Of a stretch of 64,000 bases of DNA, positions 6,467 to 50,465 are shown piece by piece. Position 1 is the first letter of the stretch. Each line of letters begins with the position of its first letter. The DNA is from Candidatus Daviesbacteria bacterium (lineage in GTDB: Bacteria; Patescibacteriota; Microgenomatia; Daviesbacterales; UBA10151): positions 472,368 through 536,367 of the forward strand of contig JAQUSJ010000001.1 in assembly GCA_028715175.1 (NCBI GenBank). Direction: 5' to 3'. The notes beneath the pieces were generated by a model that saw only the letters and a program-made list of their open reading frames with translations, searched no databases and was not told the origin of the DNA. Both the position numbers and the translations under genes were made by a program.

Positions 6467-6469
6467 GCA

Positions 6470-6498
6470 TTGACAGGCACGAAATCTTATAATAATAT
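6470..6498 (+). promoter_or_regulatory. sigma70-like promoter TTGACA-N17-TAATAT for the 6505 ORF
   Basis: ttgaca at 6470-6475, 17-nt spacer, taatat at 6493-6498; 6 nt upstream of the ATG region. Confidence 0.5.
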
Positions 6499-6504
6499 CT
6501 GGAC

Positions 6505-6897
6505 ATGAGTAGCAGAGGTGAAGTCTATAGAGCTTTAGTTGAATCAACTGTAGCCCAGTTAATGGGAGCCCGTGTTCCTGATGTTACTGTTGTGGAGCAA
6601 CAAATAGAACGAGGTCATGTGGTTTCTGGAAATTGGTTAGGAGGAGTTACTAGGAACACACCTATGCCAGAAAGCTTGGTGAGGCGACTTGTTACTCAAA
6701 TAGAACCAAGAGTAAAAGCGGCTTTTGCAGATATGTCTGAGTGTACTCTCTCTATTCGTATATCGGAAGGATGGAAACCTCCTATAATTGATTCAGTAGT
6801 TCCTGATTTGCGGATAAGATGGCGCTTGCGACGTCTAAAGGAGCCTACTTTGTATCAACATGTAACTGGTCGATATGCAACTCAGCCGCTTGACTAA
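6505..6897 (+). CDS. hypothetical protein (lysine-poor, compositionally atypical)
   Basis: 130-aa ORF with consensus promoter; no recognisable motif; composition unlike neighbouring K-rich proteins. Confidence 0.4.
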   Translation: MSSRGEVYRALVESTVAQLMGARVPDVTVVEQQIERGHVVSGNWLGGVTRNTPMPESLVRRLVTQIEPRVKAAFADMSECTLSIRISEGWKPPIIDSVVPDLRIRWRLRRLKEPTLYQHVTGRYATQPLD

Positions 6898-6949
6898 GCA
6901 GTATTACACTTGAGAGTAATATTCAATTCCAGTATAATCTAAACAGTTT

Positions 6950-7023
6950 GCCGCGTTCGTCTAGTGGCCTAGGACGTTGGGTTTTCATCCCAGAAATCAC
7001 GGGTTCGACTCCCGTACGCGGTA
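6950..7023 (+). tRNA. tRNA-Glu (anticodon TTC)
   Basis: Hand-folded cloverleaf: acceptor GCCGCGT/ACGCGGT, D loop with GG, anticodon stem TTGGG/CCCAG, loop TTTTCAT, T loop TTCGACT; no encoded CCA. Confidence 0.8.
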
Positions 7024-7135
7024 CTAGCTCCAAAATTTAATCCTTGCGATTAAATTTCTGGAGATACTACTTCGTTAGAGTGAATCCTAGCTCGAAGAGC
7101 GGTTCGCCATCCGCCTTTGGCGGATGATCTGCGTT

Positions 7136-7151
7136 CTCCCGTACGCGGTAC
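7136..7151 (+). repeat. direct repeat of the tRNA-Glu 3' end (ctcccgtacgcggtac) followed by CCA; attL/attR-like scar
   Basis: Identical 16-mer at 7009-7024 (inside tRNA) and 7136-7151. The second copy continues with cca, while the intact gene continues with cta. Confidence 0.6.
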
Positions 7152-7163
7152 CAGAATTACAGA

Positions 7164-7742
7164 TTAGATTGTTATACCAAGCTTTTTAAGCTTTTCTTTT
7201 AAATCTTGTGGGTTATTAAACAGAATACCCTTCATACCTACGTTTACAGCGCCTGTGATATTGCTTTCTCTGTCATCGATAAATACTGCCTCTTGTGGTT
7301 TAACTCCCAACATCTCAGCTATTAATTGATACATTTTTGGATCAGGCTTTATCATCTTGTGTTCTGTAGAGACAATCATTGCATCAAAAACTTCTTTTAT
7401 ATTAAATTTTTTTAAAAGAATCTTAAGCCACTCTGATATAAAGTTTGATAAAAGACCAATCTTGTAATTCCTCTTTAATTTTTTCATTAACTTATAAACT
7501 TCTTTATTTAAAACAAAAGTGCTAAGAATTTCTTTTTTCACTTGTTTTGCTTCCTTGCCTGATTCTTTTGCAAGGTAATTTAAAAATTGATCGGGAGAAA
7601 TACTGCTGCTGTCAACTTTATAGGAAATATCATGGAAGAAATCTCTCCTTTTTTCAAGATTAGGGATATTTTTATGCAACCAAAGCCAATATGCCTCTGT
7701 CATAATAACTCCTGCGTTATCAAAAATAATGGCTTTAATCAT
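7164..7742 (-). CDS. HAD-superfamily hydrolase
   Basis: 192 aa; motif I FDNAGV (DxD-type) and motif IV FIDDR. Confidence 0.75.
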   Translation of the reverse strand: MIKAIIFDNAGVIMTEAYWLWLHKNIPNLEKRRDFFHDISYKVDSSSISPDQFLNYLAKESGKEAKQVKKEILSTFVLNKEVYKLMKKLKRNYKIGLLSNFISEWLKILLKKFNIKEVFDAMIVSTEHKMIKPDPKMYQLIAEMLGVKPQEAVFIDDRESNITGAVNVGMKGILFNNPQDLKEKLKKLGITI

Positions 7743-7845
7743 TGGGGTAAATATATCACGATTCTAATCCCTAATGGTAGTTATATGCTAGATTTGAAGT
7801 GAAGCTGTACTTGAGTAAAGCATCCCATGCCTGAAGTGTACCTAG

Positions 7846-7880
7846 AAGCTGGTTCTCCTTCGACAAGCTCAGGACTATAG
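7846..7880. repeat. solo copy of the cttcgacaagctcaggac motif (related to the family B TIR region in uvrA)
   Basis: ccttcgacaagctcaggactatag here vs ctttcgacaagctcaggacaagag at 35117-35140. Confidence 0.45.
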
Positions 7881-7955
7881 CAATTCTGAAACACTTGGGG
7901 TACTTATGAGCCCTATAGTTTGCAATTATTTTTCCATTTATAGTATAATTCCTTA

Positions 7956-8645
7956 ATGGCAAATTGCGAACAACAAACAGGCTTTTATGGGTTGGTTTCC
8001 AGAGTTAAAAGCGTGAATTGTAGATGTGGGCCAGGGATAAAATTTAATGATGTTAATCTAGCTAGATGGTATCCTCTAGATGTGCTTTGGAAAATGTTGA
8101 AATCAACAGGCAGGGGTGGAGATATGAGGGATATAGGTGGAACTGCTGTTCATCATGTGATTTATGATGATCAAATTAATGAGGGGGATATCAAATGGTT
8201 AAGTTCCCAATCAAAGTTTGGTTTGGAAAGATTTTTCAATAATTTAATTATTGCAGATGAAACAAGAGTTTTAGAAGTCATAAGGAATGATAGTTTTGCA
8301 TTAGAAAAGCCAGAGAATAAATTACACACATTAACTAGACGTTTGTCAGATTTGTTAGAAGTATTACCACATGGTTTATCAGCTGGATTACTGCTGGCAG
8401 TTGCAAACCCTTATTTTAGGAAGGTAGAGACAATGGATATTTCACAAGCACAGAAGACTCTAAATTATGCTAGAGATGCATTTGTTTTTCTTCCACCAGA
8501 CGCAAGACTTGATATTTTTGGCGAAATGGTTCAACTTTCCCCAGGTCCAAATGGTACTGCACGAAAGTTCTTGAGGTCAGTTGCTTTGAGTAATGGAGAT
8601 GCAGCAATTCCTTATAATGAACTGTTGCAATTAGTAGGAACTTAA
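7956..8645 (+). CDS. hypothetical protein (lysine-poor)
   Basis: 229-aa ORF preceded by a tataat-like box; no motif recognised; lies between tRNA scars. Confidence 0.45.
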   Translation: MANCEQQTGFYGLVSRVKSVNCRCGPGIKFNDVNLARWYPLDVLWKMLKSTGRGGDMRDIGGTAVHHVIYDDQINEGDIKWLSSQSKFGLERFFNNLIIADETRVLEVIRNDSFALEKPENKLHTLTRRLSDLLEVLPHGLSAGLLLAVANPYFRKVETMDISQAQKTLNYARDAFVFLPPDARLDIFGEMVQLSPGPNGTARKFLRSVALSNGDAAIPYNELLQLVGT

Positions 8646-8710
8646 ATGGCGAAAAAGCCTCTTAAGAAAAATTGAAGAAGTTAATGGCACGGAGCCACTA
8701 TTTCTTTTTG

Positions 8711-8782
8711 TGATCCGGCAGGGATTCGAACCCTGGACCAAGAGCTTAAAAGGCTCCTGCTCTACCGCTGAGCTACCGGACC
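8711..8782 (-). tRNA. tRNA-Lys (anticodon TTT)
   Basis: Reverse complement GGTCCGGTAGCTCAGCGGTAGAGCAGGAGCCTTTTAAGCTCTTGGTCCAGGGTTCGAATCCCTGCCGGATCA; anticodon loop CTTTTAA; T loop TTCGAAT. Confidence 0.8.
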
Positions 8783-9030
8783 AAGATATTTTTTAACCAA
8801 TCTCGACCTATATGTGACTTTAGGTACTTTTCTCTTTTTAATGCTTCTTGTCTCGTATTGTACTCTTCCTTATAAACTACATTCCATGGGCCCTTATTTA
8901 TTTTAGTATAGCTTTTAATTTTACTAGGTAACAAACCATTATGTCTTGCTAGTCTACTTTCTAAATTCCCTGTTTGCCCAATGTATATTTTACCAGTTGT
9001 TTTACTCTTAATTACATAAACACTGTACAT
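8773..9030 (-). CDS. GIY-YIG nuclease family protein (YhbQ/UPF0213-like, 85 aa)
   Basis: YVIKS..GKIYIGQTGNLESRLARHN matches the GIY-YIG core; 3' end overlaps the tRNA-Lys 5' end by 10 nt. Confidence 0.8.
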   Translation of the reverse strand: MYSVYVIKSKTTGKIYIGQTGNLESRLARHNGLLPSKIKSYTKINKGPWNVVYKEEYNTRQEALKREKYLKSHIGRDWLKNILVR

Positions 9031-9072
9031 AAACTAATAGAACCAATAGCTTAAAAGTCCGGCTGCGCCGGA

Positions 9073-9094
9073 TCTACCGCTGAGCTACCGGACC
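9073..9094 (-). repeat. 22-bp duplicate of tRNA-Lys(TTT) nt 1-22, followed by a CCGGC/GCCGG hairpin
   Basis: tctaccgctgagctaccggacc is identical at 8761-8782 and 9073-9094; the two copies flank the GIY-YIG gene. Confidence 0.65.
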
Positions 9095-23140: not shown

Positions 23141-26100
23141 GTGATTAAAAAGTTAAAAAGCGCAAGCCAAGCTTTATTTAAAACTATTTGTTTTTTTACA
23201 ACACTTCTTATTATCTTTCAACCTGCGATGGTTTACCCTCTTTTGGCTCAGGAAGCTACTTTATCTGCAGAGTCTGTGGTTTCTGAAACTCCTAATCCTA
23301 CGCCTGCCCCTACTGATCAGCCGGCAGAAACTCCAACTCCGCAGCCAAGTGAGCCGACAATCACCCCTGAACCATCTCCTTCCGTTACCCCGATACTGGA
23401 ACCAATACCTTCCCCGACTGTTGAACCAACTATAACTTCGGAGGCTTCACCTGTGCTGACTCCCTCACCAAGTCCTTCGATTGAATCTTTACCAACCGAT
23501 CAAGTTGAAAGTAGTAGTACATCTGAACCAACTGTAGGACAACCCAACGCTCCGCCTGAAATTCCGGTTCCTTCTGATGCTCCAACACCCAGCCCCAGTC
23601 CAACCATAACTCCAGTTCCAAACATTCAGGGGCACCTGGCAGCAACAATTGTAGAAAGTTCCGCGCTAAATTCTCTAAACCTAGATCTTAACCCGGCAAA
23701 TACCAATACCAGTGCCAGTTTAACAACCGACAAGCCTGATTATGCCCCTACCGAGATGGTAATTATTTCCGGGACTGATTTTTTGCCGAACACAACTTAT
23801 ACGCTAAGGATTGCTTCTTCAGATCCGCCTCCGGTTGACTTCCAGGCTGAAGTTACCACTAATGATAAAGGTACATTTATATATAGTTATCAATTAGATG
23901 GTAATTACAGGCCAAATTATTTAGTAGAAGCCAAAGATTCCAGTGGAAATATTGTTGCAACAGTCACATTTACTGACTCTCCGGCGCCAAGCAACACAAA
24001 ATTATATCAATGGGAAACCATACCATCAGGAAATTGGATAACAGGTGCTCTAAATTCAAGTAATTCAAATTATTTAGAAGGTGAAACCGTTCCTTTTGAG
24101 CTAGACCTAGGAAAAATTTCAACATCAGGAAATCCCTATACTTTTTCTATCTGTAGAGATTATCAGAGCGGATCGCACTTTGGATATATCTCTTTGCAAC
24201 TGTTCAATACTAGCAGAGCTGCTGTTCCAGATGGTGCAATATCTACTACAAATAACCCGTTTAGCGGATCAAATATCTCAAGTATTAATTTTACAGAGGT
24301 TGGCGGGCAAGGCGCTTGTAGTTCTGGACAAAGAGAAACACAGCTATCGATTAATGTTACAAGCGAAAGCGTAAACACATACCTTTTATGGGGAGGAAGA
24401 TTAGCATCCCCATCAGACTTGGGTGTTGGAGCAGGTAACGGTTCTTCTTCCTATCCAGGCGGAAGTCTTCATATGCATTTATTATCCCCGAACAAAGATG
24501 TTGGAATACAAACAAATGCAATCATACAACTTGCCCAAATAACTGTTACAAAAGTAGTTGATAGCGGTTCTGCAAATACTAACCAATGGTGTTTTAACAT
24601 TTCTCCTGATCCAAACGGACAATCGGGCACTATATGTGGGCCTTCCGGTATTTTTACAGGATTACCAACAGGCAGTTATACCATTACCGAGAGTTCTGTA
24701 AGTGGATATTCATTTGCTTCAGGGATAGGAACGAATTGTACTTTTTCCGGTTCTACTGCCACTGCTAGTGTTACTGCTGCCACAACTGCTGTGAATGCCT
24801 CATGTACTTTTCATAACACCTTAAGTCAAGGAACGTTAAGAGTTATTAAGTCTGTCACTAATAATAGTGGAGGTACAGCTGTTCCTGGTAATTTCAACCT
24901 TCATGTTAAAAGTGGGGGTGTTGATGTTTCCGGCAGTCCTGCGGCAGGGTCAGTAACCGGTACAGTTTATACTTTGCCTGTTGGTACTTATGCGGTTAGT
25001 GAAGACGCGCCGCCTGCCGGTTATACTCAAACAGGCTTTAGCGGTGATTGTGATAGTCAAGGTTCGATAACGGTTGTTGCAGGTGTTGAAAAAACCTGCA
25101 CAATTACTAATGATGATCAGCAGGGAACATTAATTGTCAAAAAAATAATAGTTAACGATAATGGTGGAGTTAAAACTGCTTCGGACTTTTCTTTCTCAGT
25201 TAATAGTGCAACCGCTGTCAACTTTGAAGCCGATGGTCAGAATGATTTGACTGTAAATGCCGGAACTTACAACATAGTTGAACCAGCTGTTTCCGGCTAC
25301 GATACAACCTACGATAATTGCTCAAATGTCCAAATCCCTAATGGTGGTTCTGCCACTTGTACGATCACTAATAATGACAAAGTCGCGCATTTGGTAGTTA
25401 TTAAGCATGTTGTTAATAATAACGGTGGGACTGCTTCAGCTTCCGCATTCACGATGACAATTAATAATGTAGTTACATCAGGTGGTAATTCATTTGCCGG
25501 CAATGAGGGTGGAGTTAATAAGACTTTGACCAGCGTAGGTTTCTACAGCGTGATTGAAACAGGTCTTTCCGGTTATGCGCAGTCCGATTCCGCAGATTGT
25601 TCTGGTACTATTGCTTTGGGTGAAACTAAGACTTGCACAATCACCAATGATGATATTGCTCCCTCCTTGACCTTGAACAAAATCACTAACTACACCCACG
25701 GTGGCACGGCTCCTGAGTCTTCTTGGACTTTAACTGCTAGCGGTCCAACATCAATTTCAGGTCCTGGTGCAGCAGGTTCCGCCGACGTAGTTAGCGACGG
25801 AACTTTCTCTGCCGGTACTTATACCTTATCTGAAAGTACAGCCCCAACCGGCTACACCAACGGTACCTCATACAGTTGTGTGAAGAATGAAAGCGCACCG
25901 GTCTCTGGTAACAGCATAATACTCGCTATCGGTGACACCGCGGTTTGCTCCATCACCAACACTGACGTGCAGGCGAAATTGACTGTTACAAAGATCGTTA
26001 ACAATCACGGCGGCAGCAAAGTAATCTCTGATTTTCCGCTCTTTGTCGGGGCGACCGGTGTGACAAGTGGTGTGCAAAATGGATTCGATGCTGGTTCGTA

Positions 26101-28063
26101 TACCGTTTCTGAAACCGGCGACTCGAACTATACAGAAACGATCACAGGAGACTGTGCAGCAAATGGCAATGTGATGCTCGCCGTCGGCGATGTGAAATCC
26201 TGCACCATTACAAATGAAGAGAAGCCGGCCAAGTTGGTCGTAACCAAAGTTGTTGTAAATGATAATGGTGGTACTGCATCCGAGTCTGCCTTTCCGCTTT
26301 TTGTTGATCAGACCGGCGTAACTTCCGGTGCGATGAATACATTTAATTCCGGTTCGTATATTGTCTCTGAGACTAATCAGCCTGGTTACTCTGGTACGGT
26401 TAGTGGGGACTGCGATGCAAACGGGAATGTGATCCTGGTTCCAGGACAAACAAAATCTTGTACAATTACAAATGATGACCAGCCTGGAAGAATTAGCGGA
26501 AAGAAATTTAACGATATAGATGGTGATCATTTGTATACTGATGGTACGACAGATCCAAATTTATCAGGTTGGACTATCACACTAGATAAGCAGAACGACA
26601 TTAATCCCCCTGTTTGTACGAGTGGAACCATAGTTGGTGAACTTTGTGTCGAAATGACTAATTCTTTCGGTAATTATGCTTTTTATGGTCTTGAACCCGG
26701 GACTTATATTGTCAGCGAAGTTTTGCAAAATGGATGGTTCCAGACTAGACCTGAGGCTAATGGAACATATATTCTAACAATTGGATTGGGTGATGATATA
26801 GATGGCCGTGATTTTGGTAATCAAGGTAGAGGAACAATTAAAATTAATAAGATAGTTAATCCAGCTGATGATTCTCAGTGGGATTTTAGGGTAACAGGAA
26901 GTGTGGGAGGATATGATCAAAGCAGGACTTTAGGAAATGGAGGGACCAGTACTTTAACAAATGTTCCTGCTGCTAATTACACCATAACTGAGGTTACCAG
27001 TTCCGCTTACACTACTACGATTGATTGTGGAAGCAACGGCAGTGTTACAAATAATGCAATAGATTTCACTGTTGATCCTGGTGAGAATGTTGAGTGTACT
27101 TTTACCAACACCAGAAATACTGGCGTAATTATAGTTCATAAAGCTGTTGATCAAGGAAATGGTTACCAGGAAGATGATGTTGAAGCAAATAGGCTAGGTT
27201 TTAGATGGATTCTTGATGGAGGCAGTGAATATGAAATGGGTGCAAGCGCCAGTGCTGCCACATCTGATAATCATGATATTAATGAAAATTCTATCCCGGG
27301 TTATCAATTCACCGGCTGGTATGAGACCGGGAACGAACAATTCAGTTGTGCTGAACCCGAATCAACCAGTTTGCCGGTTTCTCTGACAGTGACAAAGAAT
27401 CAGACCAGGGGCATAACTTTGTGCAACCAGCTGAAAAATCCAGTTTTGACCATTACTAAATCCAATGATAAAACCGGAGTTGATTTAACAGCCGGCAGCA
27501 GTGTTTTATATACCATTACTGTTGAAGCCACGCAGGCTGCTGCTTCAAATGTGGTAGTTAAAGATTTATTGCCTGATGGGTTTAAATACAGGGGTGGTTC
27601 CTGGGCTGTAAATTCCAGTACCAGAGGGAATATCACCAGTTTAATTATTGAGCCAGTTTATGCCTCTCCGGGCACCTGGAGTTTGGGTGACATGGCTAAA
27701 GACGAAAAAATAACTCTTACTTTGACAGCAGATATTGATGGTTCCAAGCAGCCCGGTCTTTATAAAGATTTGGCTTGGGCCAAGGGAGAATCCTTTGCCT
27801 CAACTCAAGTTTTGGCTAATGCGGAGGATCCCGGCTTTGTGGATAGTAACTTTGTGGGTACAGAGGTTAATATTGTTAAAAACCCGGACGGAACAGCTGC
27901 CAATATTGAAAATGAAGAATTAAGGGGTGAGGTGTTGGGCGCCTCAATAGCCTTGCCGTCAACCGGAGCCAATGCTTTATGGATAATTCTGGCTATTCTG
28001 CTTTTGGTAGGCGGTAGCGGATCTATTGTCCTGGGGCGAACTTTAAGGAGGGAAAATGGTTAA
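23141..28063 (+). CDS. giant LPXTG-anchored cell-surface protein (1640 aa) with a Pro/Thr/Ser-rich stalk and many ~100-aa repeat domains
   Basis: Signal peptide; PTPAPT/PSPS linker; repeated GTL.V.K.V.N..GGTA....F motif (SdrD-B/DUF11-like); C-terminal LPSTGA + hydrophobic segment + RTLRREN sortase sorting signal. Confidence 0.85.
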   Translation: MIKKLKSASQALFKTICFFTTLLIIFQPAMVYPLLAQEATLSAESVVSETPNPTPAPTDQPAETPTPQPSEPTITPEPSPSVTPILEPIPSPTVEPTITSEASPVLTPSPSPSIESLPTDQVESSSTSEPTVGQPNAPPEIPVPSDAPTPSPSPTITPVPNIQGHLAATIVESSALNSLNLDLNPANTNTSASLTTDKPDYAPTEMVIISGTDFLPNTTYTLRIASSDPPPVDFQAEVTTNDKGTFIYSYQLDGNYRPNYLVEAKDSSGNIVATVTFTDSPAPSNTKLYQWETIPSGNWITGALNSSNSNYLEGETVPFELDLGKISTSGNPYTFSICRDYQSGSHFGYISLQLFNTSRAAVPDGAISTTNNPFSGSNISSINFTEVGGQGACSSGQRETQLSINVTSESVNTYLLWGGRLASPSDLGVGAGNGSSSYPGGSLHMHLLSPNKDVGIQTNAIIQLAQITVTKVVDSGSANTNQWCFNISPDPNGQSGTICGPSGIFTGLPTGSYTITESSVSGYSFASGIGTNCTFSGSTATASVTAATTAVNASCTFHNTLSQGTLRVIKSVTNNSGGTAVPGNFNLHVKSGGVDVSGSPAAGSVTGTVYTLPVGTYAVSEDAPPAGYTQTGFSGDCDSQGSITVVAGVEKTCTITNDDQQGTLIVKKIIVNDNGGVKTASDFSFSVNSATAVNFEADGQNDLTVNAGTYNIVEPAVSGYDTTYDNCSNVQIPNGGSATCTITNNDKVAHLVVIKHVVNNNGGTASASAFTMTINNVVTSGGNSFAGNEGGVNKTLTSVGFYSVIETGLSGYAQSDSADCSGTIALGETKTCTITNDDIAPSLTLNKITNYTHGGTAPESSWTLTASGPTSISGPGAAGSADVVSDGTFSAGTYTLSESTAPTGYTNGTSYSCVKNESAPVSGNSIILAIGDTAVCSITNTDVQAKLTVTKIVNNHGGSKVISDFPLFVGATGVTSGVQNGFDAGSYTVSETGDSNYTETITGDCAANGNVMLAVGDVKSCTITNEEKPAKLVVTKVVVNDNGGTASESAFPLFVDQTGVTSGAMNTFNSGSYIVSETNQPGYSGTVSGDCDANGNVILVPGQTKSCTITNDDQPGRISGKKFNDIDGDHLYTDGTTDPNLSGWTITLDKQNDINPPVCTSGTIVGELCVEMTNSFGNYAFYGLEPGTYIVSEVLQNGWFQTRPEANGTYILTIGLGDDIDGRDFGNQGRGTIKINKIVNPADDSQWDFRVTGSVGGYDQSRTLGNGGTSTLTNVPAANYTITEVTSSAYTTTIDCGSNGSVTNNAIDFTVDPGENVECTFTNTRNTGVIIVHKAVDQGNGYQEDDVEANRLGFRWILDGGSEYEMGASASAATSDNHDINENSIPGYQFTGWYETGNEQFSCAEPESTSLPVSLTVTKNQTRGITLCNQLKNPVLTITKSNDKTGVDLTAGSSVLYTITVEATQAAASNVVVKDLLPDGFKYRGGSWAVNSSTRGNITSLIIEPVYASPGTWSLGDMAKDEKITLTLTADIDGSKQPGLYKDLAWAKGESFASTQVLANAEDPGFVDSNFVGTEVNIVKNPDGTAANIENEELRGEVLGASIALPSTGANALWIILAILLLVGGSGSIVLGRTLRRENG

Positions 28064-29039
28064 AACTCTGTTTGCGACAGCTACTATGTTTATTTTGACT
28101 CTCTTGCTGACAACCGTTGTTTATGCTGCCAATTTATCTGTGAGAATTGAGGTTCCCAAAACACCTACTAACCAGAACGCTTTTAAAATAAATTTTGTTA
28201 CCATGGATATCTTGGGAAGATCCGTGGATGTTCAATGCTTTAAAAAAGGACCCGGGGATTCTTCATCTTCCCAATTTGGATCTACTCTTAATTTATCCGC
28301 CGGAGGGAACAGTGGAAATTGTGAAGTGACGTCGTCTATTGTCTCTGCCGAGGGAACTTACGAATTTTATGTGATAGCTACAGCAGGTTCAGATACGGCA
28401 ACCAGTTCTACTGTCAATGTGGAATATAAAACTTCTGCTCCCTCTACCCCCGGAAATTATAACAAGGAACTTCTTGGCAGTTGCCAATATAAAATAACTT
28501 TTAAAACTGCTGATGACGGAGGCAGAACCTCTAGGGTAGAAGTTTACAGGTCAGATCAGACCAGTTTTACAGCTGACAGCGGTACCAGGGTAGGGACAGT
28601 TTGGATTGGTTCTAATTTAGAGGGCAGTTTTATTGATAATGTGCCTGATTGTGGTAAAGGCTATTATTATGTTATCCGGGCCTTTGACGGGGCAGGAAAC
28701 GGTTCCGGTATTGCAGGCGATAGTGTGACCAAAGTTACTATAACTTCCACTACTACAACGACGACGCAAACTTCTCCTGCACCTACCGCAGCAGCAGGAG
28801 CTATTCTTGCTGTTACTTCTCAAGTTGGACAGGGAGATATTCTGGGAGTTAACGGAGAAGAGGCAACTTCAGAAGGAGATATTTTAGGAGAAGGAACGCC
28901 TTCTTCAGAGGAAGCCGGACCATCTGAAACCGTAACCCCGGAGAAGAAACTACTTACACCTAAAAACATTTTTCTTGCAACTCTTGTCCTGATTATTTTA
29001 GGTGGTGGCTATTATTACTACAGATCCAGACAAAAATAA
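28056..29039 (+). CDS. secreted surface protein with two FN3-like domains and a C-terminal TM anchor
   Basis: Signal peptide; YYYVIRAFDGAGNGS FN3-like ending; Thr-rich linker; C-terminal LATLVLIILGGGYYYYRSRQK. Confidence 0.5.
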   Translation: MVKTLFATATMFILTLLLTTVVYAANLSVRIEVPKTPTNQNAFKINFVTMDILGRSVDVQCFKKGPGDSSSSQFGSTLNLSAGGNSGNCEVTSSIVSAEGTYEFYVIATAGSDTATSSTVNVEYKTSAPSTPGNYNKELLGSCQYKITFKTADDGGRTSRVEVYRSDQTSFTADSGTRVGTVWIGSNLEGSFIDNVPDCGKGYYYVIRAFDGAGNGSGIAGDSVTKVTITSTTTTTTQTSPAPTAAAGAILAVTSQVGQGDILGVNGEEATSEGDILGEGTPSSEEAGPSETVTPEKKLLTPKNIFLATLVLIILGGGYYYYRSRQK

Positions 29040-29048
29040 TTTTCCCGA

Positions 29049-29645
29049 ATGAAAATATCATCTATCCTGATATTTATAGGATTTTTATGCATAATTTTAG
29101 GCATTGCTATTTTTGTAAAAACTTATTTTCCGGTGATTTCGCTTGAGCTTAATTATCAAGTTAATGCAGCTCAGGGACAGTTAGCGATTAAAAGGGAAAT
29201 CAAACCCCAGGATAGTCAGTTTGGAATAGTTATTCCTAAAATTGATGCAAATGCCAAAATTATTCCCAATGTGGATCCGTATAATGCCAGGCAGTACCAG
29301 GTGGCATTAACAAAAGGCATAGCTCATGCCCTGGGAACAGCTTTCCCGGGCAACGAGGGTGATGTTTTTTTATTTTCCCACTCCTCTGTCAATTTTTATG
29401 AAGCTCAAAAATATAATTCTATTTTTTACCTTTTAAATAAAATGGAAAAGGGAGACGAGATAGACCTTTATTATAACAACGGGAAATTTAAATACTTAGT
29501 CACTGATAAAAAAACTGTGGCTGCAGAACAGGTGAAATATTTATCAGGAAATGGATCAAAAAAAACTGTCACTCTGATGACCTGCTGGCCGCCGGGTACA
29601 ACCTGGGAGAGGCTGCTTGTGACAGGAGAGTTAGTGAAAGATTAA
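29049..29645 (+). CDS. sortase (class A/E-like transpeptidase)
   Basis: N-terminal TM; catalytic TLMTCWP (TLxTC) and LFSHSS His motif. Confidence 0.85.
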   Translation: MKISSILIFIGFLCIILGIAIFVKTYFPVISLELNYQVNAAQGQLAIKREIKPQDSQFGIVIPKIDANAKIIPNVDPYNARQYQVALTKGIAHALGTAFPGNEGDVFLFSHSSVNFYEAQKYNSIFYLLNKMEKGDEIDLYYNNGKFKYLVTDKKTVAAEQVKYLSGNGSKKTVTLMTCWPPGTTWERLLVTGELVKD

Positions 29646-29687
29646 AACTTGATAACTATAAATTATAAATAGAAGGGGGGTGAAAAA

Positions 29688-30428
29688 ATGAATATTAAAA
29701 AAATGTTAATTGGTACAGCAGCAGGTGCTCTAATGCTTGGAAGTATTACAGCAATAGCATTAGCTGTAGGAAGCAATGGAAGTCTTGAAACTGGTACTAA
29801 TCCTGGTGTATTTATAACGCTTACATCGCCTAACACCTCCGATATTACGGATTGGTCGGTTGATTCTGGAAGCGTTGATTACATCGGCAGCTATTGGGTA
29901 GCATCTAATGGGTCACGGAGTATCGATCTTAACGGTCTTGCAGCAGGATCTGTTAGTCAAGCATTAACAACAGTAACTGGAGCTACTTATAATGTTACCT
30001 TTGATTTGTCCGGAAATCCGGATAGTCGGCCAGCTGAGGATCCTCTCTTCAGTCCGAGCAATAAAGTGTTAAGAGCTAGCGCAACCGGTGCAGTTTCTCA
30101 AGACTTTAGTTATGATACAAGTTCTAAAGGTAATAGCCTCTCTGATATGAAATGGGAAAGCCAGTCTTATTCCTTCGTTGCAACGGGGATAAGTACTGTC
30201 TTGACTTTTGCCAGTCAGATTCCAGGTGCTTTTGGTCCTGCATTGGATAATGTAGCAATTGCAGAAATTTTACCAACTCCATCTCCGTCACCGACTCCTA
30301 TTGGTCTACCGACCAACAAGGATCAGTGCAAAAAAGGTAAGTGGGAGGACTTTGGTGTGTTTAAAAACCAGGGGGATTGTGTTTCATTCGTAGCAACAGG
30401 CGGTAAAAATTTACCAGCAAATCCATAA
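29688..30428 (+). CDS. secreted beta-rich protein (DUF642/choice-of-anchor-like, tentative)
   Basis: Signal peptide with RBS aagggggg; Ser/Thr/Gly-rich; C-terminal Cys pair. Confidence 0.45.
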   Translation: MNIKKMLIGTAAGALMLGSITAIALAVGSNGSLETGTNPGVFITLTSPNTSDITDWSVDSGSVDYIGSYWVASNGSRSIDLNGLAAGSVSQALTTVTGATYNVTFDLSGNPDSRPAEDPLFSPSNKVLRASATGAVSQDFSYDTSSKGNSLSDMKWESQSYSFVATGISTVLTFASQIPGAFGPALDNVAIAEILPTPSPSPTPIGLPTNKDQCKKGKWEDFGVFKNQGDCVSFVATGGKNLPANP

Positions 30429-49717: not shown

Positions 49718-49771
49718 AATTTTGGAATAGTAGCATTGTTCTTACCATAAATCAACTCTTCTAGCGCTTTG

Positions 49772-49844
49772 CGCCCCTGGAAGGAATTGCACCCTCGACC
49801 CTTTCGTCCGAAGCGAAATGCTCTATCTGCTGAGCTACAGGGGC
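49772..49844 (-). tRNA. tRNA-Arg (anticodon TCG) with an unusual T loop (TGCAATT)
   Basis: GCCCCTGTAGCTCAGCAGATAGAGCATTTCGCTTCGGACGAAAGGGTCGAGGGTGCAATTCCTTCCAGGGGCG; acceptor GCCCCTG/CAGGGGC. Confidence 0.7.
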
Positions 49845-49893
49845 ATATATTCACTAATATTAACAAATTATATACTCAATGTATAATTCTCAT

Positions 49894-49931
49894 TTGACAA
49901 ATATCTAACGATCGTCAATAATTTGTCAACA
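49894..49931. promoter_or_regulatory. 38-bp nested palindrome R1 (TTGACAAA-TATCTA-ACGATCGT-CAATAA-TTTGTCAA) overlapping the -35/-10 of the PaaX-like gene
   Basis: Outer IR ttgacaaa/tttgtcaa, inner acgatcgt; contains a TTGACA -35 box. Confidence 0.55.
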
Positions 49932-49937
49932 TACATT

Positions 49938-50465
49938 ATGGTTAGAAAAAGATCAAAATTAGTTAATGCTGCACTTTTTGCTTTGGAGAAATCTGTTTGG
50001 GTTGGAGCGACGATTTACGATTTTGCAACTTACATGCACCAATATTCTCATGGAAACCCGCAAGGAGCTGACCGTTATGAATTCTACCAACTTATATGGA
50101 GGTTAAGAAAAGAAGGTTTTATCGAAAGAACAAAGGATTTAAATGATGATAAAATAATTCTCAAATTAACGGCAAAAGGGGAAAATTACTTAAAGATAGA
50201 GAATGCTTTAAGGGATGAGAAATGGGATGGTAAATGGAGACTGGTTGTGTTCGACATTCCGGAAAGCAAAAGAAGATTGCGAAATACCCTAAGACAAAAG
50301 CTGAAAGAATGGGGGTTTAAATACTGGCAAAAAAGTTTGTGGGCCAGCAAAAAAGACGTTGCAGAACCCTTAAGGGAATTTATACAAGAATTGAGTCTTT
50401 CAGATTTTGTGCTCGTAGTAGTATCAAATGATCTCGGTACTTTCAGCAAGTTGACAAAAATCTAA
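49938..50465 (+). CDS. PaaX-family-like transcriptional regulator (wHTH + PaaX_C-like domain)
   Basis: Start moved to ATG 49938 (ORF track uses TTG 49923); C-terminal W.GKWRLVVFDIPE..R..R..LR..L...GF...Q.S.W motif. Confidence 0.5.
   Translation: MVRKRSKLVNAALFALEKSVWVGATIYDFATYMHQYSHGNPQGADRYEFYQLIWRLRKEGFIERTKDLNDDKIILKLTAKGENYLKIENALRDEKWDGKWRLVVFDIPESKRRLRNTLRQKLKEWGFKYWQKSLWASKKDVAEPLREFIQELSLSDFVLVVVSNDLGTFSKLTKI

Follow-up and report, generated by a model that had tools for sequence, protein, structure and literature searches.

A conserved hairpin module behind a tRNA-Glu gene of Candidatus Daviesbacteria: a possible miniature integration cassette

Introduction

Genomic islands and prophages that integrate at tRNA genes split the gene, restore it and leave a displaced fragment behind as a general rule (PMC4383910). 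Since repeats of tRNA 3' ends are routine markers of integrated elements, such a repeat is in itself an ordinary observation. When an integrative element decays, keeping both attachment junctions while losing its genes for integration and transfer, the product is referred to as a CIME (PMC5704250). Other invaders of tRNA loci include phage T4 SegB, a known tRNA-cluster homing endonuclease of the GIY-YIG fold (PMC2330249), and group I introns, which are known in Patescibacteria tRNA genes at anticodon loop position 35/36 (PMC13011429).

Here, we examine a tRNA-Glu gene of Candidatus Daviesbacteria whose 3' end is repeated a short distance downstream, in a stretch of 64,000 nt (hereafter, the window); L-numbers denote the loci compared from other genomes. 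An earlier note on this DNA had attributed the repeat to a largely deleted element accompanied by imported genes. What we find unusual is that the intervening DNA is a gene-free, structured and conserved unit of about 0.1 kb that recurs at two tRNA species, each occurrence carrying a repeat specific to the adjacent tRNA.

Results and discussion

The tRNA-Glu gene and its repeated 3' end

The 16-mer CTCCCGTACGCGGTAC, which the earlier note had described as duplicated, indeed occurs exactly twice in the 64 kb (7009-7024 and 7136-7151), with no third copy even when two mismatches are allowed. Because A73 of the tRNA lies at 7023 and C74 at 7024, the repeat corresponds to tRNA-Glu positions 59-74; it can be extended to 19 nt with one mismatch (CTAG versus CCAG). 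The intact gene has a G1-U72 pair at its acceptor end and does not encode CCA, the sequence after C74 being TA. As had been claimed, the two copies continue differently, the distal one being followed by CA so that it reads A-C-C-A at 7150-7153. The gap between them measures 111 nt (7025-7135) rather than the 112 bp first given, with a start-to-start spacing of 127 nt (Table 1). That the repeat might be a chance match or an assembly artefact is barely credible: none of 100 shuffles gave any match to the 16-mer, the module recurs at eight other loci from different samples, and an assembly artefact is unlikely given that an independent short-read Logan contig of run SRR22315506 matches window positions 6993-8744 exactly and holds both copies.

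Table 1 Features at and around the repeated tRNA-Glu 3' end (window coordinates).
Feature	Coordinates	Strand	Basis or remark
ORF130 sigma-70-like promoter site, TTGACA-17-TAATAT	6470..6498	+	10/12 matches, consensus match only
ORF130, 130-aa orphan ORF	6505..6897	+	variable slot between NUDIX gene and tRNA-Glu, outside the repeat-bounded insert
tRNA-Glu promoter-like site, TTGAGA-17-TATAAT	6910..6938	+	11/12 consensus matches
tRNA-Glu(UUC), intact	6950..7024	+	ARAGORN; Rfam tRNA 59.3 bits (Rfam span 6950-7023)
Proximal 16-nt core, tRNA positions 59-74	7009..7024	+	element-supplied under the integration model
Hairpin H1, directly 3' of tRNA-Glu	7028..7063	+	minimum-free-energy folds
Linker, H1 to motif	7064..7077	+	variable among close relatives
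Conserved motif GAGTGAATCCTAGCTCGAAGAGCGGTTCG(C), hairpin	7078..7107	+	pattern match and covariance model R1
Hairpin H2, CAUCCGCC-UUU-GGCGGAUG	7108..7126	+	folds, alignment
Pre-tail AUCUGCGUU	7127..7135	+	minimum-free-energy structures
Distal 16-nt core (7136-7151) plus CA, reading ACCA	7136..7153	+	displaced native tRNA-Glu 3' end
Native tRNA 3' flank (…ACAGATTAGATTGTTA…)	7154..7175	+	overlaps 3' end of HAD gene, stop codon 7164-7166
HAD-family hydrolase gene, convergent with tRNA, outside insert	7164..7742	-	Pfam HAD_2 and Hydrolase
ORF229, all-alpha, small uncharacterised family, outside insert	7956..8645	+	structure model, homologues

Empty sites and a recombinase-bearing element in relatives

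The synteny comparison proposed in the earlier note yielded both empty sites and a full-size element. In the syntenic loci L009, L022, L134-137 and L149, tRNA-Glu is followed directly by the native flank, the empty-site genes ending AC-T. The TTTAGATTG-type flank stands directly after the tRNA in the empty L022 and L134, and after the distal copy in the window, L123, L146 and L152. The claim of an insertion at tRNA-Glu is therefore borne out, with repeats bounding an insertion at the T loop / 3' end and with empty sites in syntenic relatives.

In the closest relative, whose NUDIX protein is 88% identical, tRNA-Glu abuts a large serine recombinase gene (L127; Resolvase, Recombinase and Zn_ribbon_recom domains), and the ORF of this recombinase extends across the tRNA on the opposite strand. 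About 16.3 kb past tRNA-Glu (L152), a distal GACTCCCGTACGCGGTACCA is followed by a flank homologous to the distal flank of the window, and ACCA marks this far boundary as it does the distal copy in the window. The identity block comprises tRNA positions 57-76 in the 16-kb element and 59-74 in the mini elements. A second recombinase, 27% identical to the first, occupies the same place beside tRNA-Glu in L131. Because the 16-kb recombinase element of the closest relative has the same core and the same native flank, the tRNA-Glu end is a genuine integration site, and the homology of core and flank to the far boundary of that element identifies the distal copy as the displaced native end. This part of the earlier claim stands, whereas the CCA on which it had leaned is not a family feature: it is found on the distal copy at two of nine element-bearing loci and is absent or varied in seven of the eight distinct sequences. 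Compared by eye with both ends of the L127/L152 element, the insert has no evident homology to either, which leaves descent from this element hypothetical.

Anatomy of the insert

No ORF (7025-7135) and, by consensus scan, no promoter-like site lies within the insert, and no inverted repeat joins its ends in the window copy. Rfam returned no match beyond the tRNA, neither in the window at gathering thresholds nor in 6900-7200 at E ≤ 10, where the best other value was E = 5. No recombinase or transposase was found among the 49 of 61 window ORFs (≥90 aa) with Pfam hits; the remaining 12 comprise six without a Pfam hit and six short ones (91-171 aa) that were not scanned.

H1 of the window consists of 15 base pairs with one bulge and is AT-rich without a T run. 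Together with the TAG that trails the proximal core, it is common to all five distinct members with an AT-rich H1. Its equivalent in L034, L124 and L146 is a GC stem with a T run, resembling a terminator, and compensatory changes in the alignment fold separate the H1 types. The motif folds into a hairpin with a 7-bp basal stem that includes two G-U pairs, a CUA bulge and an apical GCUC-GAA-GAGC. The exact motif pattern is also present in L034 and L123-L126, the hairpin of L034 showing one compensatory pair, and L128 has a 10-bp stem in place of the apical stem. At the H2 position, every member has a hairpin, the sequence of which differs among members; the same loop and stem type occurs in L124 and L146. 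In the window, pre-tail CUGCGU can pair with tail ACGCGG into an acceptor-stem-like helix of 6 bp; the helix appears in the minimum-free-energy structures of the window, L125 and L128, and has 4 base pairs in L123. Folding of the insert favours the tRNA-sense strand over the antisense strand by 4-10 kcal/mol in all four members tested (z of -3.7 to -5.2 for sense and -1.9 to -3.5 for antisense).

A module family at two tRNA species

We show that the same module is present at at least eight further loci, seven at tRNA-Glu and one at tRNA-Asp, in Daviesbacteria-like uncultured CPR genomes. The seven tRNA-Glu loci represent six distinct module sequences, one of them diverged. The order of parts is H1, the conserved 29-nt hairpin motif, the variable hairpin H2, and a 16-nt copy (the tail) of positions 59-74 of the adjacent tRNA; the part made up of H1, motif hairpin and H2 measures 108-153 nt. 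The insert is thus a member of a conserved three-hairpin module with eight other occurrences, including one at tRNA-Asp, and not an arbitrary remnant of a larger element. With the window counted, the tail is identical to the adjacent tRNA at 16 of 16 positions in six of nine element-bearing loci. The Asp-specific tail TTCCCGTCGGCCCCGC of L124 and the acceptor variant in L126 are both identical to their adjacent tRNA; L123 and L146 have the alternative acceptor allele in their distal copy, with two and four mismatches to the adjacent tRNA, respectively. The motif beside tRNA-Asp (L124) is identical at 28 of 29 nt, and L034 (Glu) and L124 (Asp) are homologous over H1, linker and motif (z = 8.4), which indicates that the small form predates its arrival at the second tRNA species. 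Across four genomes the 16-nt tail is unchanged, with H2 differing in two of them.

Covariance model R1 scored 68 bits in the window and 49-69 bits in seven other loci. Applied to the window plus 150 loci (1.07 Mb), R1 recovered no additional copy at E < 0.05, with three weak matches at E of 0.06-0.46. The motif pattern had no match in viral contigs, and a search of metagenome and viral collections for a full-size parent carrying the motif returned mini forms only.

In L034, L124 and L146, unlike in the window, the linker is complementary to the 16-nt tail. The predicted pairing amounts to -13.5 to -15.1 kcal/mol, versus -7 to -9 for shuffled linkers, and is significant or nearly so in these three loci and not in the window group. 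It co-varies between Glu and Asp tails, non-cognate pairs reaching about -8 kcal/mol. A closing helix in the window group is not conserved (z about 0).

Hairpin plus partial-tRNA units were also seen downstream of tRNA-Pro and tRNA-Glu in Balneolales, which suggests that the phenomenon could be wider.

A miniature integration cassette as the preferred reading

Our preferred reading, to which we would give an even chance, is that the insert is an integration cassette of miniature size that is not autonomous, akin to a cis-mobilizable element in extremely reduced form. The geometry of the insertion is that of site-specific integration into tRNA genes. What has been inserted between positions 58 and 59, in the T loop of the tRNA, is a 127-bp non-coding cassette (16 nt of tRNA 3' end plus 111 nt). 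Under this reading, its left end would supply replacement positions 59-74, followed directly by H1, so that the tRNA would stay functional, and the native positions 59-76 with CCA, together with the native flank, would be shifted 127 bp downstream. A recombinase encoded outside the cassette, such as the tRNA-Glu-targeting large serine recombinase of the sister genome, would have put it in place and may also move it. The insertion, the empty sites, the core in common with a full-size element, the membership of a family and the conserved hairpins of the sense strand are observed; the element-supplied origin of the proximal copy, the mobilisation in trans and the acting enzyme we infer. As no protein is encoded and the module forms a conserved family, we favour a mini-cassette over an accidental remnant.

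Several considerations count against the cassette. A recombinase model needs the element to have carried the cognate tRNA 3' end beforehand; a move from tRNA-Glu to tRNA-Asp needs a core swap, and none was observed; and the allele mismatch in L123 and L146 requires either that an allele was replaced afterwards or that the crossover fell close to the core's 3' end. In addition, the survival of hairpins while their sequences changed, the G-U pairs and the better folding of the sense strand indicate a constraint acting on RNA or single-stranded DNA (ssDNA), which an inert integration scar would not show. The lack of evident homology to the ends of the L127/L152 element also weighs against the cassette, as do the mini forms that alone matched the motif pattern in the metagenome and viral collections, and the single copy per locus, with none elsewhere in the 1.07 Mb searched.

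More tentatively, and with clearly less confidence, the modules may belong to a kind of miniature, tRNA-targeting element not yet described from CPR bacteria, namely hairpin cassettes of roughly 110-150 nt that enter the T loop of different tRNA genes at 58/59 and bring a replacement 3' end and a terminator-like hairpin. Their conserved sense-strand structure would then end in an acceptor-end mimic and be required, as RNA or ssDNA, either for their own spread or for a host function. If mobile in its present form, the module would rank among the smallest site-specific insertion cassettes known and would offer a handle on how the tRNA genes of streamlined CPR genomes tolerate repeated invasion. 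If it is an RNA that mimics the acceptor end of tRNA, it would be a new tRNA-linked non-coding RNA.

Alternative explanations

The latter possibility is the strongest competitor, although we consider it rather unlikely: the insert would be a functional structured RNA, made from the 3' trailer of tRNA-Glu or from its own start, and its insertion history would be secondary. The RNA would consist of two or three hairpins and end in an internally paired copy of the acceptor 3' strand that mimics the acceptor end. It might act as a processing signal, or it might decoy or regulate enzymes recognising the 3' ends of tRNAs. The better folding of the sense strand in four of four members fits this explanation, as do the two invariant G-U pairs in the motif stem (with further G-U pairs elsewhere) and the persistence of H2 and of the apical motif stem as hairpins despite varying sequence. 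Pairing at the 3' end is likewise consistent with it, whether as the co-varying linker-tail pairing of L034, L124 and L146 or as the 6-bp acceptor-like helix of the window group, and so is the constancy of the tail across four genomes, two of which have a differing H2. However, an ssDNA intermediate would fit the same features. Moreover, Rfam offers no family even at E ≤ 10, the insert holds no promoter-like site, and in L034, L124 and L146 the unit is separated from the tRNA by a strong, terminator-like H1. The closing helix lacks conservation in the window group, and the absence of the module from many close relatives means that it is dispensable.

A second alternative, which we regard as improbable, takes the insert for a decayed second tRNA-Glu left by an old tandem duplication, a copy whose anticodon arm was lost and whose T loop took up a palindrome (H2); the 16-nt repeat would then simply be its best-preserved part. 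The long form in L128 speaks for this, being collinear with tRNA-Glu positions 7-58 (z = 4.5, reached by 1 of 1000 shuffles, with other tRNAs scoring lower), whereas similarity to positions 1-58 is not significant in the short forms, the window included (z ≤ 0.6), with other tRNAs scoring equally well or better. GGTTCG at the motif end together with the tail resembles a T arm broken at 58/59. Other phyla (L026, L039, L077) have partial distal tRNA copies with palindromes inserted in the T loop, and Balneolales commonly carry tRNA-Glu genes in tandem. Nevertheless, a neutral pseudogene would not hold a 29-nt motif and a 16-nt tail while H2 turns over, and a local duplication of tRNA-Asp cannot explain L124, where the same motif (28 of 29 nt) stands with an Asp-specific tail.

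It is also conceivable, but very unlikely, that the insert is a hairpin-ended IS200/IS605-type palindrome-associated derivative, or a guide-RNA-like remnant, its 16-nt 3' tail being directed at the sequence beside the T-loop motif TTCGA. The insertion point lies directly 3' of TTCGA, the structure is biased to one strand, and hairpins lie inward of the boundaries, by about 19 nt on the left and by 8-13 nt on the right; we take this spacing and the 16-nt tail to resemble IS608 geometry and TnpB guide length. Yet no TnpA, TnpB or IscB-like gene is present among the 49 window ORFs with Pfam hits, four right-end bases are not conserved, and the element is single-copy. The 16-nt duplication is at odds with a family that makes no target duplication, and a Glu-specific 3' end brought into another tRNA would break that tRNA.

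Three further candidates were considered and rejected. The group I introns known from Patescibacteria tRNA genes occupy position 35/36 and greatly exceed the insert in length, and an intact tRNA and the lack of an Rfam match also speak against one; a target duplication of the casposon or transposon kind lacks its terminal inverted repeats; and readings of the motif as a known ribozyme or kink-turn, made by eye, found no consensus core and no Rfam match.

Neighbouring genes

The two orphan ORFs flanking the locus, which the earlier note had regarded as lysine-poor, unlike the host and probably imported as cargo at a tRNA hotspot, are present with the lengths and coordinates given there, and so is the promoter site ahead of ORF130. 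ORF130 is indeed the poorest in lysine of the 61 ORFs (2.3%), while ORF229 is so only weakly (4.8%, rank 13 of 61); the mean over the window is 8.0% (sd 2.9%). Synonymous codon usage is host-typical in both, ORF130 ranking 32 of 61 and ORF229 61 of 61, that is, the most host-typical in the window.

ORF130 has no Pfam match, matched only itself among 5.8 billion proteins and gave an AlphaFold2 model too poor to use (pLDDT 47). It occupies a slot, bordered by the NUDIX gene and tRNA-Glu, in which L009 and L125 have nothing and other relatives have orphan ORFs that are weakly related at best; residues 87-112 of ORF130 show a weak profile match to such slot ORFs (E = 0.014). ORF229, also without a Pfam match, has 13 distant homologues among 1.84 billion representatives, and the best of these (E = 8e-21) is at the syntenic position in the closest relative. 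Its all-alpha AlphaFold2 model (pLDDT 77.7) had no match in the PDB (best E = 0.1). Since both ORFs lie outside the repeats, have host-typical codons and occupy, respectively, a hypervariable slot and a position with a syntenic homologue, horizontally acquired cargo is not supported; we regard them as fast-evolving resident genes. For annotation, the case cautions that amino-acid composition alone is insufficient for calling nearby orphan ORFs cargo. The HAD gene on the other side of the distal copy also adjoins the element in L128.

Comparison with known systems

Like MITEs and repetitive extragenic palindromes, the module is small, non-coding, hairpin-rich and non-autonomous. Unlike MITEs, the window copy has no terminal inverted repeats and carries a 16-nt target-specific direct repeat rather than a short duplication, and the module is single-copy in the 64 kb and in all loci searched.

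GIY-YIG nuclease cassettes were found in tRNA-Lys of the window, in tRNA-Gly of L124 and beside tRNA-Glu fragments in L039 and L152. They resemble the insert in lying inside a tRNA gene, part of which is duplicated with one intact copy left, and in having their breakpoint in the T-loop or variable-loop region. They differ in containing an ORF of 80-107 aa, whereas the tRNA-Glu insert has none and shows no similarity to them, and in duplicating the 5' part of the tRNA in the window and L124. Neither the module itself nor small GIY-YIG cassettes within bacterial tRNA genes were described in the literature searched. The tRNA-Lys cassette is within the same 2.2-kb stretch as the tRNA-Glu insert, and in relatives serine-recombinase elements occupy tRNA-Glu.

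With CIMEs, the insert shares two attachment-like repeats, the lack of recombination genes, and a site used by functional elements in relatives. Described CIMEs are nevertheless kilobases long and recognisably derived from a parent, whereas the insert is about 0.1 kb, has no detected homology to the recombinase-bearing element and belongs to a module whose compact form is the same at both of its tRNA species.

Tested against tRNA-integrated islands and prophages (PMC4383910), the window insert departs in its length of 111 nt, in having no integrase or other gene, in an interior of conserved hairpins instead of decayed island DNA, and in a repeat that begins at 58/59 and does not cover the whole T loop. 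A recombinase inside the element, absent here, is present in relatives L127 and L131. In common with such islands are the intact tRNA, the insert and the direct repeat of the tRNA 3' end, a repeat that begins in the T loop, empty sites in relatives, and a core that also bounds the 16-kb element of the sister genome. The L127/L152 element is about 16 kb long and has no evident sequence in common with the insert; both it and the serine recombinase element of L131 share with the window the same tRNA-Glu gene, the native flank and the boundary region, where the repeat runs from G57 through CCA.

The duplicated tRNA-Glu 3' end

The host, a CPR/Patescibacteria genome with a G+C content of ~39%, encodes at this locus, in order, UDP-glucose dehydrogenase (-), a NUDIX protein (+), ORF130 (+), tRNA-Glu (+), a HAD hydrolase (-), ORF229 (+), tRNA-Lys (-), a GIY-YIG ORF (-) and a CvpA/CAP-domain protein (+). 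The earlier note's claim that the 16-nt 3' end of tRNA-Glu, CTCCCGTACGCGGTAC, is duplicated was borne out: the sequence occurs exactly twice in the window, with no third site even when two mismatches were allowed, window shuffles returned zero matches, and a Logan contig from run SRR22315506, identical to window 6993-8744, contains both copies. The repeat corresponds to tRNA positions 59-74 and can be extended to 19 nt with one mismatch; TA follows it at the tRNA gene and CA at the distal copy. Within the anticodon region of tRNA-Glu, the Logan assembly of the same run is broken, with one contig stopping at 6979 and the following one beginning at 6993; a sample in which several tRNA-Glu alleles or arrangements co-exist would fit this break. 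A run of the same series, SRR22315508, shows a sister genome with a 16-kb element.

Features of the window and of the comparison loci (L-numbers)
Feature	Sequence	Position	Strand	Remark
tRNA-Glu	window	6950-7024	+
16-nt repeat, tRNA copy	window	7009-7024		last two T-loop bases, 3' strand of T stem, 3' strand of acceptor stem, A73, C74
16-nt repeat, distal copy	window	7136-7151
Hairpin H1	window	7028-7063
Motif hairpin	window	7080-7107
Hairpin H2	window	7108-7126
NUDIX-tRNA-Glu interval	window	6467-6949
ORF130	window	6505-6897	+
ORF229	window	7956-8645	+
tRNA-Lys(UUU)	window	8710-8782	-	in region 8710-9094
85-aa GIY-YIG ORF	window	8773-9030	-	precedes tRNA-Lys(UUU); stop codon within tRNA 5' end
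Damaged tRNA-Lys copy	window	9042-9094		upstream of GIY-YIG ORF
Homologous small GIY-YIG ORFs at tRNA genes or fragments	L124	2880-3260	-
	L039	7035-7373
	L152	2914-3293
Large serine recombinase ORFs	L127	6005-7690	-
	L131	5816-6754	-
tRNA-Glu between relics	L140	3490-3690
	L141	770-970
Balneolales units	L017	6273-6507
	L024	4-228, 650-883
	L026	25-219, 601-824
Candidate surface locus	window	23141-30428
PaaX-domain protein and adjacent tRNA-Arg(UCG)	window	49771-50465

Integration at tRNA-Glu in related genomes

Syntenic loci were gathered through NUDIX homologues and a tRNA 3'-end scan, among the matches listed. No second copy is present in L009, L022, L134-137 and L149, where tRNA-Glu directly abuts an unrelated flank or tRNA-Lys. 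The flank motif TTTAGATTG lies immediately 3' of the tRNA in L022 and L134, and 3' of the distal copy instead in the window, L123, L146 and L152. In the closest relative, GCA_028712705.1 (loci L127 and L152), whose NUDIX protein is 88% identical to that of the window, a 561-aa ORF with Resolvase, Recombinase and Zn_ribbon_recom domains adjoins tRNA-Glu on the opposite strand, its frame running through the tRNA; ~16.3 kb away on the same contig, GACTCCCGTACGCGGTACCA is followed by TAATAAGAGTTTAGTTTGTTA, a flank homologous to the window's CAGAATTACAGATTAGATTGTTA. In L131, the same tRNA-Glu position is taken by another recombinase, with 27% identity to the first.

Given the empty sites, the shifted flank and the recombinase elements in relatives, the tRNA-Glu segment from the T loop to the 3' end genuinely serves this clade as an integration site, which upholds the earlier proposal of site-specific integration into a tRNA. 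The CCA-bearing distal copy, previously taken for a displaced native end, has its ortholog in the sister genome's displaced native end (L152). Both recombinase ORFs run through the tRNA-Glu gene on its opposite strand, so that tRNA-Glu and the DNA beyond it encode the final ~40 to 65 residues; the C-terminus of each enzyme would therefore depend on whether the element is integrated.

A conserved family of compact inserts

At L034, an identical tRNA-Glu is followed by a terminator-like hairpin, GAGAGAATCCTAGCCCGAAGGGCGGTTCG and a distal CTCCCGTACGCGGTACCA. A shared-motif scan of metagenomes recovered four loci of the same layout, at tRNA-Glu (L123, L125, L126) and tRNA-Asp(GUC) (L124), and synteny added L128/L129 together with a diverged variant, L146. 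Every member consists of the tRNA, H1, a short linker, the motif hairpin, a variable H2, 8-13 nt and a tail that repeats positions 59-74 of the tRNA next to it, with inserts of 108-153 nt. Six loci, including one with an Asp-specific tail (L124) and one with an acceptor variant (L126), have tails identical to the adjacent tRNA (16/16); the tail represents the other acceptor allele in L123 (two mismatches) and L146 (four mismatches). Among element-bearing loci, CCA at the distal copy is confined to the window and L034; L128 and the window are one C apart at this position.

The window insert folds into its three successive hairpins with z=-4.3, and a small helix joins CUGCGU, just before the tail, with ACGCGG of the tail. 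Across the alignment, the fold comprises 29 pairs, of which 9 show compensatory changes, mostly between two H1 types; the motif stem has one compensatory pair and two invariant G-U pairs, and in L128 a 10-bp stem replaces the apical part of the motif. The sense (tRNA) strand folds better than the antisense in all four members tested. H1 is terminator-like in L034, L124 and L146 and has no T run in the window. In the same three loci, the linker is complementary to the entire 16-nt tail, with pairing that tracks the tail's Glu/Asp identity; this does not apply to the window group. The insert has no match in Rfam, and a promoter scan found no promoter-like site within it. Given its structural constraints, the insert may alternatively be a functional RNA. 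A pseudo-tRNA origin is also conceivable: the long form in L128 aligns with tRNA-Glu positions 7-58 (z=4.5), but for the window the similarity to tRNA-Glu is not significant.

Homology between L034 (Glu) and L124 (Asp) spans H1, linker and motif (z=8.4), but L124 has an H2 of the type found in the window; the modules are therefore mosaic. The homology between Glu and Asp modules further implies that the compact form is older than its presence at two tRNA species. The insert, which the earlier note had considered the remnant of a largely deleted element, is instead a member of a conserved gene-free family with the same compact layout at other loci, and independent deletions of large elements are an unlikely source of these modules.

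Neighbouring orphan ORFs

Both orphan ORFs had been described as lysine-poor and unlike the host, suggesting acquired cargo. The first point holds for ORF130, an arginine-rich ORF with the lowest lysine content of 61 ORFs (2.3%), but only weakly for ORF229 (4.8%, rank 13), which is no compositional outlier. ORF130 is average in synonymous codon usage (rank 32 of 61) with a low, host-like GC3, and ORF229 has the most host-typical score. Structure prediction yielded a confident all-alpha model for ORF229, without a PDB match, but a poor one for ORF130. ORF130 also has no Pfam match, and a search of 5.8 billion proteins gave no homologue.

Between NUDIX and tRNA-Glu, ORF130 fills a slot that is vacant in L009 and L125 and in which relatives carry other orphan ORFs (60-197 aa); three of these are weakly related to one another, and their profile matches ORF130 residues 87-112 (E=0.014). 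Compared with L009, L125 and L127-L150, this interval is hypervariable, measuring 12-26 bp in two relatives. ORF229 has 13 distant homologues; the best of them is encoded at the syntenic position of the closest relative, flanked by the tRNA-Glu site and tRNA-Lys/CvpA-CAP. Both ORFs lie outside the repeat-bounded segment. They are resident genes that evolve fast, in a tRNA neighbourhood prone to rearrangement, and their acquisition as cargo is not supported.

GIY-YIG cassettes and other tRNA-associated loci

The damaged tRNA-Lys copy covers the first ~48 nt of the gene, with 22 identical nt followed by a palindrome inserted in the anticodon stem, and lies at the native promoter, with 47 nt separating it from the CvpA/CAP gene. 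L152 has an intact tRNA-Lys at this exact spot and no GIY-YIG ORF there; therefore, a ~312-bp cassette entered the tRNA-Lys gene, which it supplied with a replacement for the 5' part. In L124, the GIY-YIG ORF begins within a pseudo-tRNA-Gly, in its T loop, and extends 3 nt into an intact tRNA-Gly, and in L039 (Chitinophagales) and L152 (Daviesbacteria) it lies directly upstream of a partial tRNA-Glu 3' copy. Our literature searches found no description of small GIY-YIG ORFs abutting tRNA genes or fragments.

In another Daviesbacteria genome (L140, L141), one tRNA-Glu, whose acceptor stem differs (GACGCCA/TGGCGTC), is flanked by relics of the usual tRNA-Glu, with GCCGCGATCG ~85 nt before it and CGCGGTACCA 11 nt after it, as though a new allele had been inserted into the old gene. 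In Balneolales, one hairpin, TTGCGAAAGCAGTGCTT(T/C)CGC, occurs ~100 nt after both tRNA-Pro and tRNA-Glu, fused to GGTTC(A/G)AATCC and to the adjacent tRNA's 3' end, and these units may represent an analogous phenomenon in another phylum. Palindromes interrupt the T loop of partial tRNA copies in L026, L039 and L077.

Elsewhere in the window, a cluster encoding a 1640-aa protein with at least 6 SpaA-like prealbumin-fold repeats, a sortase and a DUF642 protein, with an ECF-type sigma factor and a DUF5667 protein upstream, looks like a pilus or surface-fibre locus. A 180-aa protein with a PaaX central (Cas2-like) domain adjoins tRNA-Arg(UCG).

Interpretation of the insert

The att-like repeat by itself is ordinary; the unusual part is the conserved, structured miniature insert, which we consider moderately interesting. 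The insertion, at position 58/59, comes with a 16-nt direct repeat and occupies a site that recombinase-bearing elements use; overall, it is best read as a miniature non-autonomous integration cassette. The cassette's left end would restore the tRNA and add a hairpin. The empty site would join tRNA position 58 to the native end and flank, with GGGTTCGA followed by CTCCCGTACGCGGTACCAGAATT, and a circular or tandem junction would read GATCTGCGTT, CTCCCGTACGCGGTAC and TAGCTCC in succession. As to the acting enzyme, whose identity we infer, none of the 49 window ORFs with Pfam hits is a recombinase, and no homology was seen between the insert and the ends of the 16-kb element. As a miniature integration cassette, the insert would resemble the cis-mobilizable elements, or CIMEs (PMC5704250), and share the general geometry of genomic islands (PMC4383910).
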